Program-made: the position numbers and the translations under genes | NCBI GenBank assembly: GCA_013239625.1 | Contig: MU053758.1 | Location: forward strand, 1,984,001-2,048,000 | Direction: 5' to 3' | Length of the DNA: 64,000 nt | From: Lama guanicoe | Taxonomy: Eukaryota | Shown: piece by piece, positions 18,786-63,349 of the stretch | Layout of the letters: the number at the start of each line of letters is the position of its first letter | Position numbering within the stretch: the first letter of the stretch is position 1 | Notes under the pieces: generated by a model | The model's database searches: none | Seen by the model: the letters and a program-made list of their open reading frames with translations, nothing else | Told to the model about the DNA's origin: nothing

Positions 18786-21199
18786 TCTTTTTCTTATCTC
18801 ATGAATTTGTCCTGGTTAGAAAACAAGAGACAAAGTACAAGAGACAAAGGAGAAAGAAAATTATATTGATAAAGAGCTGTTGTATTTTTAAATGGAGATG
18901 TTCATACTTTGATGGACAACAGCTGTCTCTCTATACTTACGAAACTTTTAATATGCTGTCCAACTTATGTAATTTCCACCTGTAGAGACTACTCATCTCA
19001 GTGTGATATGAAATACTTAAAAATATTTTCCCTTTTAGCCAAATATTCTAGATGGAGTTTTAGTAGAAAATGAGATGTATTTGGATGAGATATATTCTAA
19101 GAAAAGAAGTATGTGACCTTTTTAAAAAGTAAAAGATTCAACCCAAAAAAGTAACAAATACAATACATTCAATATTTGTCAATTAGTACATTGCTTTTAC
19201 AATCTTTATATTATTTTAAAAAATCACAGTATTAATGTAGAATTAAAAATTTGTAGTAATGTTTTTCTGTTTCTTTAAAACTGAGTACTGACATGTTCTT
19301 TGGTTAGAGAGATTAAAGAATAAAGATTTTAGTTTACAGCTTTTAAAATTTTACTATCTCTAACAGATTAAGATGGTTTCATTACAATTACCAATTATGT
19401 GAAATCAAAGTTTTGTAAAATTAATAAGACTAAAATAAATAAATAATAACTTTCCCCCTCAATTCCACTTTTGGTTAATAATAGTTACTGATAAGTCACA
19501 GGAAGGGCCTACACAACTTATTTTAAAATGAACATTTCCTAGAAGGAACTTTATTAAAATCACTGATAATCTACTTACACTGAACAATAATTCTTTAAAA
19601 AAAATTATTCATCACACACACTGACTTTGTGTCAATCCTCTTCCAACTCAGAAAACATTGTCTTTTGTATATATAAATGTATATGTACATATGCATAACT
19701 ATAACTCCAATCCAAGCCTCCTTGTTTCTAAAGTAACAACTAAGATGTTTCATCTGAGTTACAAATACATCCGACCAAAATGCATTTTCTCATTTTGTAG
19801 CAAAATTGCTAAAAATCATATTGTTACTTATTCATCTAAAAGGTTACAAATCAACTTATATTAACTTAAAATCAGTTATATATTTGAAAATGTGGCCAAG
19901 AAATTTAGTGCTTAGTGGAAAGCATACTATGAATCTCCTTTATAGCCATACCATACATAGCACTTTGCTTCAGCATTCAATGAGCATTTAAATTAGTGTA
20001 TCTTTTTAAATAATCATTAAAATTATACAAGTAACCTACGTGCATTGTCAAAAAGTTTACAAAATACAGCAAAATAAAAAGAGGAAAATTAAATTCATTT
20101 GGTTTTTAACATTTAAAATTAAGCAGTGTGGTTTATATCACTCCAGAATTTTACATCTATATTCCTTTTTACAGAAAAGGGAATCGCTGTTAGTATTATT
20201 TTGTAATCCACTTTTTCAATTGTAATTAAAATTGTAATTTCTTTCCATGCCAATAGACAAACTTCTCCAAGTATATATAAAGACTTCATGTGATTCCACC
20301 AAATGGAAGAATCTTGATTTATTTAATCCATAAGATTTTTTTTTAACTTTTTACAGTAGGCATGTTAAAGAATTTTCATTGTAGTAAAATCTGGCCTAGG
20401 ACTTGTTCTGTTTCTCTGAGGAATGTGTAATCTGGGACTTGGGTGGGGTCTGTGGGCTCTTCAGAGACTCACTGACATCTAATACCCAGGAGACTTTAGT
20501 GTGTCAACCACACACTACATATATTTTTAAACCTCTGAGAGGATTAAAACACAATGACCCAAATTCTTTTGAAACTGGTCTCTTAACAATTCCTTATTTT
20601 CCTCACTCTGACCTGAACGTTTTGGGGGAGATAGCAAGTTTTTCTGAAAATCCTAAAAGCATAATCCCAAATTATTTCTAGTTTCCTCTCAGCCCTCTGG
20701 AGAATAAGAATCACAAACCAGAACAATTCTAATAAAATGATGTTTCAATTCCCTGTTCCATCCCATTCATTTCTGCCCATGTGTAAAAGGCTTTGTGGGC
20801 CCTCTTAGATAAACTTTTCCCCCCCTGTTCAGAGAAAACCGTCAATAGCTACTCACTAGGATTTCTATTTTGTTTTAAACTAAGAAAATCTTTTGAAGAG
20901 ACCCACCCCCATCTACTCGAGAATTAGCCCAGAACATCTCCAAAGAGGTAAACTGGCGAGGCCGTGAAAGATAAACTGACTAATATAAGACTCAAACCAC
21001 ATTGTGATGAATTTTTGACCCCTTTCAGTCCCTGAAAAAATGAAATTATCTCAAGAAAGTATTGGGGGAAAAAAACTCTTTTTACCACAGATTTTGACAG
21101 TTTCCTGACTAAAAGATCACAGGAAAATGGGATTTAGTCGTTGTGCCCCACCATCCTCAAATTTCTTCAAGTTTTAAAAAGAAAATATTTCCTCAAGGT

Positions 21200-21700
21200 T
21201 TTGACGCCGGGAAGAGGGAGGGCCCGGCTACAGTCGACTCCGGAGCTGCGTTCCCGCCTCCCAGGCGCCCCCTTGGCCTCGAGAGTATTTCAGAATCCTC
21301 CCAGGAGCCCCAGCGGGAGGGAGACCCCGCCTCCTCATGAATACCAAGAACCTCCGCTCCCATAGTGCCATCCTCCCTCATGAATATTTTAGAACCTCCC
21401 TGAGCTCCCTCAGGAAGGAGACTCCGCCCCCTCATAAATAGTAAAAGTCCCGGCACCCACAGTGCCCTCTCACGTCATGAATAATTAACGAGGGCGAGGT
21501 CTCCGGAGCCCGAACCTAGGCCAAAGCCACGCTTTACTTCCAGCTGGTTACAGGAAGGGGTGGAGCCGTTGCAGTCGGGGAGGGGAGGGTGTAAAACGAA
21601 GAGCCCCAAGTTGGCGCGCCACACATCAGCTCCAAACCACTTCCTTTCCTTTTAACCTAGTGTTAAGCCGATTTTTTATTCCTCCTACGCCTACCCCAAG
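21200..21700 (-). promoter_or_regulatory. FBXO47: CpG-rich promoter and probable non-coding first exon of FBXO47
   Basis: Local CpG/GC enrichment in an AT-rich background. Contains TTGGCGCG (E2F-like, ~21611), CAACGG (MYB-like, minus, ~21566) and a candidate donor GAA|GTAAAG at 21538/21537. Confidence 0.7.
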
Positions 21701-21879
21701 AGGGTAAGTTACAAGAGCTTTCATCAAAACTTCTGTTGGGAAAATCCTCCAGACATTCTTTTTTAAACTTATCTGGGTGCCTAGAATCGAAGGAAGATAA
21801 ATGCCTCCATTGTCTCAAGATGGAGTCCAGGACAAATCTTACTAGGTTGGCCCTCCTCCCTTGAAGATTAAGTTCTCAT

Positions 21880-33579: not shown

Positions 33580-35625
33580 TTACATTTATTAAATATTGGA
33601 TAACTTTAAAAGAATATTTGTAAAATATGTGTAAGGAATAAAGAAAGAATCATGGTATCATGGACTCCTGTGTATACCCCACCACTCGGTTGTAGGAGAA
33701 AAAAAAAACACCCAACAACCATCATCACGACCTCTGAAGTCCCGTAGGGTCCTCTCCCAGTTCCCCCTCCCTCCTCCTCCCCCTCAGAGGTAAACATTAT
33801 CTTGAATTTGTGTTTACACATTCCCTTGCTTCTCATTATAGTTTTAACCACATACGTTATATTCCTAATATTTATATGTATATATTGCTTAAAATTTTAA
33901 GAGAAATATGGCATGCATACAAAATCACACATGAAATCATATGTTTTGTTTAAAAAACAATAAAATGAATACCTGTGAATCTGTTACCAGGCTAAGATAA
34001 AACACTATCAGGCTCCATGTCTACTGCCTTCCAATTACATCCTTTTTCTTCATCCTGGAGGTGAATATTATCTAGAATTTTATATTAACCATTTTTTGTT
34101 GTGATAAATATACATAACTCTTACCACTTCAACCATTTTAAAATGTGCAATTCAGGGTATTAAGTATATTCACATTGTTGTGCAACCATCACCACCATCC
34201 AACTGCACAACTTTTTTATATTCCCAACTGAAACTCTGTGCCCATTAACACTAATTCACCATTCCCTCCTCCCCCTAGATCCTGGCAGCCACAACTCCAC
34301 TTTCTTTCTCTAGGAGTTTGACTATTCTAGTACCTCATATAAGTGGAATAAGCACACAATATTTGTCCTTTTCTGACTGGCTTATTTATTTATGTTATAT
34401 ATATATATTCTTTTTCTTATACTTTTTCATTTAGATACTACGAGATACTGAATATAGTTCCTGATGCTATACAGTAGAAATTTGTTGTTTATCTCTTTTA
34501 TATATAATAGTATATGTAAATTCAAAACTCCAAACTCCCCATTTATCCCTCTCCCTATCCCCCTATTGGCTTATTTAATTTAGCCTAAAGTTTTTGAGCT
34601 TCATCCATGTTGTAACATGTGTCAGAATTTCCTTCCTTTAAAAAAAAAGGCTTAAATTAATCTGTGAAATGGGATTGCATTTGACTCTATAGATCAATTT
34701 GACTTTTTGTTTTGGTTTTGGGCTTTTTTTTAATTAATTTTTAAAAAATTATTGAAGTATAGTCAATTTACAATGTTGTGTCAATTTCTGGCCTGACATT
34801 TTTATCCATGTGAGTCTTGCAGTCTATGAACATAGTAAAGCCCTCCGTTTATCTTAGTATTCTCTAATATCTCTTAATAAAACTTTATAATTTCCCCCCA
34901 CAGAGATCTGGCACGTCTTTTGTTAGATTTATTTCTAGGTACTTTATATTTTTTAATTGTATTATAAATAATATCTCTTTAAAGTACATTTTCTACTAGT
35001 AGTTGGTGTATAGAAATGTACTTGATTTTCATTTATTGATTTTCTAATACACATGCTTGCTAAATTCTCGTATTAATTCTATGAATAGATCTGTATATCC
35101 TTGAAGATTTTCATTGCAAATAATCATATCATCTATGAATGACAGTTTTGTTTCTCAGTACATTTTTTTGTACTTGCTCGTACTCTGATGGTCTCCAGTA
35201 CCATATCGAAAATCAGCCATTCTTGTCTTGTTTCCAGTCTTAAAGGAAGTGATTTTTATGTATCATTATATTTGCTAATACTTTTTCTTTTTTAAAATCG
35301 TGAATGTATGTTCAATTTTGTCAAAGACCTTTTTCCCTTACTCAGTTAATGTGGTAAATTTCACTACTTGGTTTTCCTTTTTGATAACTTTGCATTATGA
35401 AAAATTTCCAATGTACATAAAAGCTGAAAGAATAGTACAATGAACACACATATGCCTATGACTTAGGAACAAAAACTGTTAATATTTTACTATTTTTGCT
35501 TTATGTATCATTTATATATATGTGTATATTTTTTCTTAACTGTTTGAAGATAACTTATAAATATCACCACACACCTCCCATGAAATACTTCAGCATGTAG
35601 CTTCTAAACATAAGGACATTTTCCT
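33580..35625 (-). mobile_element. Cluster of nested old L1 fragments
   Basis: cacattgttgtgcaaccatcaccaccatcc, ctctatagatcaattt and similar motifs. Confidence 0.75.
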
Positions 35626-35629
35626 GAGC

Positions 35630-35672
35630 TTTTTGTTTTTTGGCGGGGAAGTAATTAGGTTTACTTTATTTT
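35630..35672 (-). mobile_element. 3' tail half of the split SINE
   Basis: ttttgttttttggcggggaagtaattaggtttac matches the tails of intact copies such as 57804-57850. Confidence 0.85.
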
Positions 35673-35791
35673 CTATCTTAGCAACATTTAGATGGAAATC
35701 AAATTTAAATTCAGTTCACTCTGCTTGGTTCAGCTCCCAAATCTCGATTGTTTGGCGCAGTCTCCTATAAGAATACTCAGAAGGTGTCTTC

Positions 35792-36442
35792 TTATACAAC
35801 AAACCTATTTTTAGTGGTAGAGCCCCTCTTAGTAGCTCTGTCTGCATGGGACTGATAACCAATCACTATCTTTGGAGGAAGTCCTAACCTTTTCTTGTAT
35901 ACCCTCCCTATATATGTAACAGCGTCTCCGTTTTCACAGTCAGTAGTCCATATTGCTATCTTATCACCTTTAGCTCTAACACTAGCAACAGCTCCACATA
36001 CATCATCACTGTAGTCATCAAAAGATTCTCCAATAAGGCACAGCAGTGTCTCTAGCCAAAAGCGATCCAAGTAACTTCGTCTCTGCCGTTTGTTCAATGT
36101 AATTAGCCATTGTCCTCCTCGGTGATTTTTCTCATCTTCCCACATGGGCTCAATACCATCCTTAAAAAGTGAGTAGTCACAGCCAGGCATTAAATTACTA
36201 GACAACTGGATATGGTTGTACAGAGCCCAAAAGTCTTCAACAGTATCGACCTTAGAGATCAGCTGAAGGTTTGCTTGCCAAGTTTTGCTTTTATCATTTT
36301 TGAAAAACCAGAGTGCCCATCTGTTCTGTAAAGGATGTTTAATATAGTGTTTTGGGTTAGCAACCTCCTGATTAGCTGTTTTCTCTTCTTCTGTAGGCGG
36401 AGAACTAGGAGTAGGGGTGGTTTCTAGTTCCACAGTCTCCAT
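35792..36442 (-). pseudogene. EIF4E: Intronless EIF4E retrocopy with intact 216-aa ORF (retrogene or young processed pseudogene)
   Basis: METVELETTPTP...HPLQNRWALWFFKNDKSKTW...GIEPMWEDEKN...GSTTKNRFVV*. No introns; ~120 nt of EIF4E-type 3' UTR down to ~35674. Confidence 0.95.
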
Positions 36443-36857
36443 CTTAAGATTGATCTGATCCCACAACCGCTCCTGAAGTGGGGGGAGGCGGGGGAGGAAA
36501 AAATGAGATTCAAACCGGATTGGCCGACTACTGTTCACGTGTCCGACGTGTCCGTTTGGCCCTGGCGGCGCCTGTGCAAGACTGCAGGCTGCGTGTGTAA
36601 CAGGAGGCTTCTGGGGAGTCTCTCTCTCTCTTTTTTTAAAGGTAGAGATGTTAAAAAAAAAAAAAAAAAATAAGGACTGGTCACGTGGTGGAGGGGTACG
36701 TTGAACGGTTCTCCGAGCGGCGGACGGTCGCGTGCTGGAGGGTGGTTTTCAGTCCTTTGCTCTTCCGCCTGGATAACTGCTGTAACACTTACTAGCAGGC
36801 ATGACCCCTGTGCTCTTTGTTGCCTTGTCCTCCCATCTTCGCTGGAAGATTGGGAAC

Positions 36858-36950
36858 TTTTATTTATTATTTTTAACGGCAGTGCTGGGGATTGAACCCA
36901 GTACCTCATGCATGCTAAGCACATTTTCTACCGCTGAGCTGTATCCTCCC
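36858..36950 (-). mobile_element. 5' (tRNA-like) half of the split SINE
   Basis: gtgctggggattgaaccca...gctgagctgtatcctcccc; lacks its own taattagg tail. Confidence 0.88.
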
Positions 36951-37659
36951 CATTAGGACAGTTTCGTACAAAAGCATAGCAAATTATCACACCAAAGAAA
37001 ATGAAGAAGTAATTTATTTCTTAATATTAAATCTGCGAGGCATTCCTGGGGTAAATCCAACTTGATGATAATGTATTATCCTTTTAAACATTGCTGAATT
37101 CAGTTTGCTAGTAGTTTACTTGTGATACTCGCATTTATGTTCGTGAGTGCACCTGGTATATAATTTTCTTTTCCGTGCTGTCCTTGTAACGTTTTGGAAT
37201 GTCGCTTTGGCATTGTTTTTTTATTTAATTAATTCCATTTCAATTTAAATTAATTTAATGTGTCCATTAAATGAAGCTTGGTAACTGTGCTATTCAAATT
37301 TCATAAATCCTTACTGATTTTGTTTTGTTTTTTCCCTTGCTTGGTTTATCGATCACTTGAGGATATTACTGTCTCCCGTTATGATGATGGATTTTCAGTC
37401 TGATCTTTTAGTCTGTCAGTTTTTGCAGTCTATTTTTCATCATTATATAGTAAATTCTTCATATCTAATAATACTTTTTGCTTTCAAGTACATTTTGTCT
37501 GTTACTTACATAGTATATCAGCTTTCTTTTACTTAGTATTTACTTGGTGTGTTTTTTCTGTTTTTTCCACTCTTGATTTCAACCTCTGATTCATTTCTTA
37601 TATTCTAGATGGATTTTTAATAAACTGTATAAAGCTGGATTTTTCACTGCTCTGACAAT

Positions 37660-39009: not shown

Positions 39010-39400
39010 TTTTGTTTTTTTTCTGTAAGGTTTTTATTATGCACAGAGAAGGGTGGGGAATCAGTCTCTTGGCAACCGCTTTCATCATGGTGGCCAGGAC
39101 ATTGCTCAGTTCTCTTGCTTCCTCTTGGCGCAGATATGTGTTCCCAATGTCTTCTGGATGAACTTGAGGGCTTGTCCTTGGAGATCTTGAATAACTCCGT
39201 GGCACGCTGCTCATTTACGGCAAAACTGCACACCTCTTGGATTGTGTCCTGAGGAAACTTGGTGTGCTTGATGAGATGCCGGCAGCCACAGCTGTGTCTT
39301 GGCTTGTCATGATCTTGCTCACTTTCTGGCCCTCATTGAGTCCAAGGCCACGGGGTAGCACAGAATCATGGCTGGACCCGTACTGCAGTCCCTGGGGCCA
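39010..39400 (-). pseudogene. RPL36: RPL36 processed pseudogene (frameshifted)
   Basis: ATG at 39369 (MILCYPVA...), then KHTKF..., ELFKISKDK and [17 protein letters not shown] with stop at 39061-39063. AATAAA at 39033-39038 and A tail at 39010-39022. Confidence 0.9.
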
Positions 39401-60337: not shown

Positions 60338-60597
60338 TTAGTGGAGCCCTGAGACTGTGGAGAGCGAGGATGTGGGTAAGACATGGAATGATCTGGGAGG
60401 CTCTGGATATACCAAGGTAACTCTCCAGACAGTACAGTTCCTGCATCAGCTCTGGGGAGCTGATGCAAATGCAGATTCCCGGGCCCGCTTTAGACTGCCC
60501 TGTCAGCATCCCTGTCACCGGGGATCTGCAGGTTCCCCGGGTGAAACCAGGTAGGCCTTTGCCTTAGTAAGTCTCAGTCTTTAGAATGACTGGTTAG

Positions 60598-61974
60598 TCT
60601 CTTCAGCAAATGGTGTTGGGAAAACTGGACAGCAGCATGTAAATCAATGAAGCTGGAACACTCCCTTACACCATACACAAAAATAAACTCTAAATGGATC
60701 AAAGAGTTAAACATAAGACAAGATACAATAAACCTCCTAGAAGAAAACATAAGCAAAACATTATCTCACATACATCTCAGCAGTGTTCTCCTAGGGCAGT
60801 CTACCCAAACAATAGAAATAAAAGCAAAAATAAGCAAATGGGACCTAATTAAACTTACAAGCTTTTGCACAGCAAAGGAAACCATGGGCAAAACAAAACA
60901 ACAACCTATCGAAAGGGAGAAAATTTTGCAAAAGGTGAAATTGACAAAGGCTTGATCTCCAGAATATATAAGCAGCTTACATGACTTAATAAGGAAAAAA
61001 CAAACCACCCAACCCAAAAATGGGCAGGAGACTTAAACAAGCAATTCTCCAAAGAAGACATACGAATGATCAATAGACACATGAAAAAATGCTCAATATC
61101 ACTAATTATCAGAGAAATGCAAATCAAAACTACAAGGAGGTATCACCTCACACCAGTCAGAATGGCTATCATTCAAAAGTCCACAAGTGATAAATGTTGG
61201 AGATGCTGTGGAGAAAAGGGAACCCTTCTACACTGCTGGTGGGAATGCAGTTTGGTGTAGCCATTGTGGAAAACAGTGTGGAGATTCCTCAGAAGACTAG
61301 GAATAGACTTACCACATGACCCAGTAAGCCCATTCCTGGGCATATATCCAGAAGGAATCCTATTTCAAAAAGACACTTGCACCCCAGTATTCATAGCAGC
61401 ACTATTTACAATAGCCAAGACATGGAGACAGCCTCAGTGTTCATCGACAGATGACTGGATAAAGAAGATGTGGTATTATTTATACAATGGAATACTATAC
61501 AGCAATAAAAATGACAACATAATGCCATTTGCAGCAACATGGATGTCCCTGGACAATGTCATTCTAAGTGAAGTAAGCCAGAAAGAGAAAGAAAAATATC
61601 ATATGAGATCACTCATATGTGGAAGCTTAAAAAAAAAAAGAAGAAAAGAAAAGACAAATGAACATCAATATAAAACAGAAACAGACTCAGACATAGAATA
61701 CAAACTTGTGGTTGTCAGGAGGTAGGGGGGTGGGAAGGGACAAACTGGGAGTTTGAAATTTGTAGATACTGACAGGTATATATAGAATAGATAAACAAGA
61801 TTATACTGTATAGCACAGGGAAATATATACAAGATCTTGTGGTAGCTCACGGTGAAAAAGAATGTGACAATGAATATATGTATGTTCATGTGTGACTGAA
61901 AAAGTGTGCTCTACACTGGAAATTGACACAACATTGTAAACTGACTACAACTCAGTAAAATTAAGAAAAAAAAA
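60598..61974 (+). mobile_element. Young 5'-truncated L1 in the last PLXDC1 intron
   Basis: ORF2 C-terminal peptides in shifting frames; perfect TSD AGAATGACTGGTTAG at 60583-60597 and 61975-61989. Confidence 0.95.
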
Positions 61975-62352: not shown

Positions 62353-62871
62353 CCTACAGCATCCTCAGCGAAAGCTCCCCAACAGAGCAACAATTATGAT
62401 TCGTATGGCTTGTCAATTCTAATCTAAAAACCCACACAGCAAGCAAAGAGCAGAGACCTCAGTTCCATTATGGCTTTGAACAGGCTCTAGGCCTGGATTG
62501 GGTGTGAGAGACCATAAATCACAGGAGATGGCTGCACAGCCACTAAAGGGGCATGTGTGACACTTCTGGCCTTCTTCCTTTCCTCTGGGGACTCTTCTGA
62601 TTTTACAAATCGGGGCGCAAGAGTAGAGGCCGTTCAGCAGGACAAGAGGGCCAGGGGAGTTCTGAGGTGCCAGGCCCTGGGGGTTAGGGACTCCACAGGC
62701 ACCAACCAGTGCTAGATGTGCCCAGATGGAGATGATGAAGTCCCTCAGGTGGAAACAAGAGCCTGGCATGTGGCAGGTGAGGGATGAGATGGGGAGAGGC
62801 AGGTACTGAGTGGCTGGAAAGACGCTGACACAGACGCAAACGGTGGAGCTGCGGCCCAGTTGTGCACTGAC

Positions 62872-63032
62872 CTCGAGGAAGAAGAGCGCAGCGTTGGAGG
62901 TGGGGTGGCCGTTGATGTAGATCCCCGCCAGGATGATGGCTGCCACGAGGAAGACGGCCAACACGATGCCCACGATGGTGCCCAGATGCACAGGGGAGCC
63001 TTTTGTCTTGGGGGACAGGTTGTTCTGAAGGC
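62872..63032 (-). CDS. PLXDC1: PLXDC1 penultimate exon (transmembrane helix)
   Basis: [53 protein letters not shown]; ccccacag| and |gtcagt; gene continues beyond the window. Confidence 0.95.
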
Positions 63033-63349
63033 CTGTGGGGAGACCGTTAGGTCAGGGTGCAGCTGCAGGGGAGCAGGGAGGGTGGGGCCATGGGGTCCTG
63101 GGTCTGACAAAGTCCCAGAGATGAAAGCCAACAGAACAACCAGGTCTACTTATCAAATCTATGAAAAGGTGGGGTGGGAGTGGGTGGAACCATTATGAGT
63201 GTGACAGTAACACTGTTCTTAGAGCATGTCAGACAGTTTTCCAAAATCACTTAAAAGTTACCCAAATGTCTAATGAGGATCATAAAATTTCTCTCCAATA
63301 ATTTTAAGGGATTTTAAGGAATTCACAAAGGGCATGTGATAGTTAAAAG

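Follow-up and report, generated by a model that had tools for sequence, protein, structure and literature searches.

Does an intact EIF4E open reading frame in the genome of Lama guanicoe belong to a working gene, or to a processed pseudogene whose frame has stayed open by chance? The frame lies in the window, the whole 64,000-nt stretch of DNA that was analysed (contig MU053758.1, positions 1,984,001 to 2,048,000). The initial annotation left the choice between a young neutral pseudogene and a variant cap-binding protein. That fork was an apt one: the EIF4E retrocopy on which it rests is real, and the interpretation built on it is partly supported.

The ORF is a retrocopy of EIF4E (EIF4E1A). 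A full-length alignment of its product to human eIF4E (PDB 1ipb, E = 1.5e-134) needs one gap, of a single residue. The parental EIF4E of the host lies on contig C5323 in seven coding exons with GT/AG borders and encodes a 217-aa protein; these exons map contiguously onto the copy ORF, from which the parental introns are absent. The uninterrupted 216-codon frame, the intronless structure and the single in-frame codon indel relative to the human protein, all claimed in the initial annotation, were recovered. Alignment to the host parent, which it had proposed, gives 34 substitutions in 651 nt, 21 of them amino-acid-changing and 13 silent. The sole ORF indel relative to this parent is a 3-nt deletion that spans codons 23/24 and converts Glu-Ser to Ala. 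At the protein level the two differ by 20 substitutions and a one-residue deletion. An intact parental ORF is one of the criteria for functional retrogenes in the accessible text of PMC4772013, and the copy possesses it. Segmental duplication and assembly artefact were ruled out by the lack of introns, a 5% divergence that is evenly spread, and a window free of N. The minus-strand frame is also open for 102 codons before the ATG (35795-36748, 318 codons from stop to stop) and contains no Met there; this extension is probably a chance feature of G+C-rich DNA.

The coordinates first given are right for the ORF, but the inserted copy is larger and runs from 36858 to ~35673 (Table 1). The initial annotation had overlooked the 416 nt of parental upstream DNA, the split SINE, the missing tail and the ~120-nt 3′ UTR.

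Table 1. Features of the EIF4E retrocopy and its insertion site, in window coordinates.
Feature	Position	Strand	Description
Direct repeat, left arm (15 nt)	36951-36965	minus	13/15 match; brackets SINE and copy
SINE 5′ half (tRNA-type)	36859-36950	minus	Directly upstream of copy; 11/82 columns off consensus
Parental 5′ UTR and promoter region	36443-36858	minus	416 nt colinear with DNA before parent ATG
Distal CACGTG E-box, kept	36682-36687		245 nt before ATG (241 in parent)
Proximal CACGTG E-box, kept	36536-36541		99 nt before ATG (93 in parent)
Putative CCAAT-box motif	36518-36525	minus	Identical to that of parent
Intronless EIF4E ORF, ATG to TAA	35792-36442	minus	216 aa plus stop, no internal stop
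First ~120 nt of parental 3′ UTR	35673-35791	minus	6 substitutions in 121 columns, one 13-nt deletion
SINE 3′ half	35630-35670	minus	Directly downstream of copy; 37/41 paired columns equal consensus 3′ end
AATAAA supplied by SINE 3′ half	35670-35665	minus	Immediately behind copy
Direct repeat, right arm (15 nt)	35609-35623	minus	13/15 match

A DNA search of the host genome with the copy region gave 42 matches, including many short ones that fall in a repeat at the query edge. A second intronless EIF4E copy (L002 / L033) is present on contig C5404 from about 4144058. It differs from the parent by 16 substitutions in 637 nt and by deletions of 1, 3, 10 and 3 nt, is younger and clearly broken, has more than 1 kb of 3′ UTR, and served as the broken-copy control. 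An old decayed copy with many stops and ~69% identity was found at C7424:8451625-8452397 (L009, L011). A multi-exon eIF4E paralogue of 56-76% identity at C1866:2589837-2592310 (L042-L045) is probably EIF4E1B.

The two ends of the copy abut the two halves of a single SINE, for which a consensus was built from 19 genomic copies. This element is presumably a member of the camelid-specific Vic-1 family; a SINE family of the Vic-1 type exists in camels, according to the accessible part of its description. The 15-nt direct repeat is the probable target-site duplication of the SINE; a match of 13/15 was reached by 24 of 2000 random region pairs. Since the SINE halves lie at both ends of the copy in order, and the repeat brackets them, the copy was inserted into an existing SINE. 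The same arrangement of halves disfavours a SINE-mRNA chimera formed by template switching. The first intron of the parent carries the same SINE family (L007 334-426 against window 36862-36954, 79% identity).

No poly(A) tail is present at the end of the copy, which falls where the parental UTR is rich in A and abuts the SINE 3′ half. Downstream of the parental stop, A[AT]TAAA does not occur until +209, beyond the ~120 nt of UTR in the copy. The A-rich end point resembles the target site by eye; a later deletion is an alternative source of this end. An A-rich duplication of ~7-10 nt occurs at both copy junctions, but it lies within a simple repeat of the SINE.

These features suggest that a tRNA-type SINE first came to lie between FBXO47 and its neighbouring gene and that the A/T-rich middle of the SINE was later cut, presumably by the LINE-1 machinery. 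The template would have been a spliced EIF4E RNA whose 5′ end lay 416 nt or more ahead of the start codon. Internal priming may have taken place at the A-rich end point, ~120 nt past the stop codon, as in the tailless retropseudogenes described in the available portion of PMC5322556. The product would be a promoter piece, the whole CDS and a short UTR, set without a tail between the SINE halves.

The upstream piece is 83% identical to the parental locus (E = 2e-128), with 47 substitutions in 400 aligned columns. The start-codon context is kept, as are both E-boxes and the motif that we take to be a CCAAT box. The copy shares with the parent its only upstream ATGs, at -394 and -360; none lies within 350 nt of the start. 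Usual EIF4E transcripts begin near the ATG. The 5′ end of L002, 14 nt before the ATG, fits this usual start or may reflect simple 5′ truncation. Because the present copy is colinear with the parent over 416 nt upstream, and L002 starts so close to the ATG, its source RNA is taken to have begun upstream and to have carried the promoter lying downstream of that start. The E-boxes of the EIF4E promoter are c-Myc sites, as stated in the accessible text of 10.1101/2020.10.12.336263 and PMC5706588. Retrocopies are known to gain expression by inheriting the promoter of the parent; ~3% of expressed copies did so in the available part of PMC4772013. Co-retroposition of the promoter is the best argument for expression of the copy. 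Transcription may start from the inherited E-box/CCAAT promoter, after the CCAAT motif, and may end after the AATAAA of the SINE, which would yield a short mRNA lacking most of the parental UTR control. The insertion illustrates how one retrocopy can acquire both a parental promoter and, through the SINE in which it landed, a poly(A) signal, an unusual layout that is ready for expression.

The promoter piece retains 16 of its 28 parental CpGs, and its CpG o/e is 0.98 at 36451-36750. With an in-genome CpG/non-CpG transition ratio of 5.1, the 5 deaminations at 54 sites do not differ from the 5-8 expected (P = 0.2-0.6), and deamination does not differ between the promoter and coding parts of the copy (Fisher P = 0.19). 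CpG retention as the mark of an unmethylated, active promoter was dropped, since deaminations are as frequent as expected; it lends a working gene no significant weight. A 129-codon ORF with an ATG (36535-36924, minus strand) runs from the SINE through the promoter piece in a different frame and includes a Phe run encoded by a poly-T tract.

The rate of change favours drift. Under four mutation models dN/dS is 0.55-0.76 with all or nearly all silent changes placed on the copy, and 1.1-1.3 if half of them are assigned to the parent. Two silent changes are common to the copy and L002 and hence belong to the branch of the parent. A dN/dS significantly below 1, a criterion for retrogenes, was not found: every 95% interval includes 1, with 34 changes and low power. 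The in-genome neutral baseline consisted of RPL21 copies alone; 33 matches gave 30 loci and 26 distinct rows, of which 8 were used, each aligned over 400 nt or more and diverging by 1.5-12% from a majority reference. The ratio of nonsynonymous to synonymous changes is 21:13 in the copy and 131:86 in these 8 copies, most of them broken (Fisher P = 1.0). The initial annotation had held that a dN/dS near 1 would speak against function, and this is largely the outcome, as the value is indistinguishable from 1 and the ratio equals that of the RPL21 copies. The preferred reading is that the copy is a drifting processed pseudogene, its frame unbroken by chance and its protein under no appreciable selection. 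We give this a probability of about 0.55. The copy would then have drifted at or near the neutral rate since its insertion.

The open frame is intact as first described, and less surprising than had been implied. Among the 8 RPL21 copies, one is intact; together they have accumulated 15 frameshifts and 10 stops alongside 272 substitutions. At these rates, and for a single lineage, the neutral chance that a frame is still open after 27-32 substitutions is 5-8% (range 1.3-20%); with assumed indel rates it is 0.001-0.07 for most settings. One in-frame indel in the ORF compares with 8 in the flanks of the copy, and the coding part of L002 has 4. As the copy was picked for being intact, its open frame is modest evidence for a gene. 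Two RPL21 copies (L048, L049) have intact 160-codon frames at 1.2% and 4.1% from the majority reference.

The main rival is a young retrogene under relaxed purifying selection, expressible at once through its inherited promoter. It is a possible account, though less probable than drift. Its product would be a folded eIF4E that binds eIF4G, 4E-BP and the m7G base and adds to the dose of the factor, with most 3′ UTR control lost. Selection would purge stops, frameshifts and fold-breaking changes and let surface changes pass. Testis is the usual place of retrocopy expression. The intact frame, the promoter elements and the start region described above fit this account; the dN/dS and the RPL21 comparison do not.

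The kind of amino-acid change gives the rival its further support. New residues in the copy are often tolerated among distant eIF4E homologues of 38-62% identity (e.g. V66, S155, D169, D174 and R120). A first tolerance test against simulated neutral changes gave P = 0.001-0.002 (0.0016 with all 89 rows). It was partly circular, because the distant rows had been fetched with the copy as query. With rows chosen by their score to the parent, P was 0.009 (62 rows), 0.014 (41 rows) and 0.059 (the strictest 22 rows), and it weakened to 0.06-0.30 when E169D and E174D were left out. In the 53 rows that share at least 96% identity with the parent, D169 is absent and D174 is present in 14, and both positions are Glu in L002; D169 and D174 were for this reason counted as changes on the copy. 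The score of the copy, -1.3 to -1.6, lies between that of non-mammalian orthologues (-0.5 to -0.8) and that of the neutral simulation (-2.5). Among controls, L002 showed no such signal (P 0.7-0.9), P was ≤ 0.0006 for each of the four non-mammalian orthologues, and it exceeded 0.05 for 10 of 11 mammalian copies that look degenerate; these last were labelled by name and pattern, and 7 more rows with fewer than 4 changes were left unscored. BLOSUM62 alone gave P = 0.08, and the tolerance test was one of several tried.

Across 92 vertebrate eIF4E rows, avoidance of conserved sites was not seen (mean conservation, P = 0.10), and 4 changes fell at sites at least 98% conserved where 5.3 were expected (P = 0.36). 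R112, N155, T203 and S207 are each kept in at least 99% of the covering rows, and all four are changed in the copy. Scored on the identity of the new residues, the vertebrate rows gave P = 0.04. None of the changes fell at the 25 sites at least 90% conserved in distant homologues, where 1.8 were expected (P = 0.15). The full-length Pfam match (PF01652) scores 201.5 bits for the copy and ~210 for canonical proteins. This independent measure is in agreement with the tolerance test: the loss is just 8.9 bits for 13 changes, or 0.68 per change. Two true orthologues lose 0.19-0.26 bits per change, and 7 of 8 degenerate-looking mammalian copies with at least 4 changes lose 1.2-3.7, four of the copies in this comparison also having gaps. 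Taken together, the pattern of change in the copy appears to lie between those of dead and of working genes.

The chance survivor and the young working gene come out as a roughly even bet. A rough weighing of the two spans 0.12-0.89 when priors are set at 2-5%, survival under neutrality at 5-15% and the likelihood ratio from tolerance at 1-8. The priors and ratios are matters of judgement, and the evidence on rate, which points to drift, does not enter this calculation.

A further alternative is a neofunctionalised cap-binding variant, with positive or mixed selection on the phosphate-binding side. In it R112Q and K108H would remove charge at the third cap phosphate, and T203R and S207R would add charge in the C-terminal loop. 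Its cap preference would be shifted, or, like eIF4E1b, it would bind weakly and compete or repress. The initial annotation is right on every residue it names: all eight Trp, E103, R157, K162 and S209 are retained, and its nine substitutions (R61Q, F66V, K108H, R112Q, D125Y, N155S, E185K, T203R and S207R) are real and hold against both human and host parent, within a full list of 20. Around the m7G base W56, W102, E103 and W166 are all kept. In the phosphate network D90, R157 and K162 are kept and R112 has become Gln. The dorsal surface around W73 is unchanged at 12 of 12 residues that we take to form the eIF4G/4E-BP interface. Since both this presumed interface and the m7G sandwich are kept, the predicted protein should enter eIF4F. 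Cap-site residues were listed from the accessible text of PMC4306533, where R112 contacts the third cap phosphate with -0.8 kcal/mol and S207 sits in the loop that contacts the second nucleotide. With this contact removed by R112Q, cap binding is predicted to be at most ~4-fold weaker. T203R and S207R could offset the loss by adding charge on the next-nucleotide loop. The calculated pI rises from 5.79 in the parent to 6.96 in the copy, in line with a changed phosphate side, and a dN/dS near 1 can in principle mask a mixture of purifying and positive selection. However, R61Q and R112Q are CpG deaminations at codons that are changed in other degenerate copies as well; R112Q itself recurs in the degenerate copy P0068, and the R112 codon is also changed in L002. 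Changes at 2 of 13 cap-site residues (R112, S207) are within chance, ~1.2 being expected from 20/217. These points make a neofunctionalised variant quite improbable. AlphaFold run without an alignment gave a pLDDT of 43.5 and was uninformative.

The most far-reaching proposal combines these elements: a lineage-specific eIF4E retrogene born ready for expression, with a Myc-type promoter, a SINE poly(A) signal, next to no parental 3′ UTR control and a rewired phosphate site, acting as a germ-line translation factor. It is unlikely as a whole. If true, the protein would have its own cap preference and regulation, with the eIF4G/4E-BP surface kept and an extra Arg two residues before S209, and would be a young, independent parallel to eIF4E1b. 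eIF4E is a limiting, dose-sensitive cap-binding factor, so a second copy whose cap pocket has changed would, if expressed, be a natural variant that merits an assay. Young duplicates of core translation factors are rare, and an expressed copy would be one of them. A dead one would join thousands of processed pseudogenes, as a source of cross-mapping reads and a phylogenetic marker.

In a regulatory reading the promoter brought in by the copy would influence FBXO47, through enhancer activity or read-through, and the ORF would be a bystander. This reading could draw on the shared strand, the ~14-kb distance and the CpG-rich promoter piece, but it is very improbable, as FBXO47 has its own CpG-rich 5′ region, an AATAAA lies directly behind the copy, and position is the sole link between the two. 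FBXO47 is encoded on the minus strand, its coding exons spanning 18785 to 2642, and a CpG-rich stretch lies at 21151-21750. The claim that the copy lies ~14 kb upstream and co-oriented agrees with the distance from the 3′ end of the copy to that stretch. Nothing ties the copy to FBXO47 beyond position. Elsewhere in the window, the RPL36 copy described earlier as broken appears as a partial match at 39168-39332 (model positions 11-65); it scores 44.7 bits where the best copies reach ~130, which fits that description. Plus-strand open stretches at 60590-61722 are presumably LINE-1 ORF2-like. A minus-strand open stretch with a transmembrane-like segment at 62422-63051 presumably represents the final exons of PLXDC1, which lies next to FBXO47 in human.

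A protein identical to that of the copy is absent from the protein collection searched. Among 178 eIF4E proteins at least 80% identical to the parent, where clusters hide members, at most 3 of the 20 changes are shared with any one, and no annotated orthologue was seen, a weak point against a retained gene. Camelid entries were absent among the matches listed (best 120 of 1147) and among the members listed of 9 clusters (15 of 400 for the largest), and fragments resembling the copy were absent among 58 short proteins. Literature on EIF4E retrocopies or pseudogenes and on camelid retrocopies, covered by titles and abstract openings and mostly outside subscription journals, held no report of the copy. 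Several other mammals have near-intact proteins annotated as 'EIF4E-like', so intact copies of EIF4E are not rare.

Relative to EIF4E itself (eIF4E1a, class I), the copy is alike in its full-length Pfam match and in the eight Trp, E103, R157, K162, D90 and S209; it differs in having no introns, 20 substitutions and a deletion, among them R112Q and S207R, and a UTR of ~120 nt. With the inherited-promoter retrocopies of Carelli et al. 2016 (PMC4772013, accessible text) it shares an upstream region that aligns to the parental locus, here over 416 nt, which is what an RNA started further upstream would leave. Its dS of ~0.08 is at the low end of their range (0.08-0.39). Members of that class are robustly expressed from starts mapped by CAGE; the copy is of this kind in its structure. 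Like the tailless retropseudogenes in the available portion of PMC5322556, it has no oligo(A), an A-rich internal end and an A/T-rich target; unlike them it is a long mRNA insert with a whole ORF, and its duplication is degenerate and lies in a simple repeat, so that it falls short of a 'perfect' example. A model for the possible action of an eIF4E with a weakened pocket is eIF4E1b, a paralogue that keeps the fold and binds the cap ~3-fold more weakly (PMC4306533, accessible text). That paralogue is old, contains introns and keeps R112; the copy instead derives from EIF4E1A and carries R112Q.
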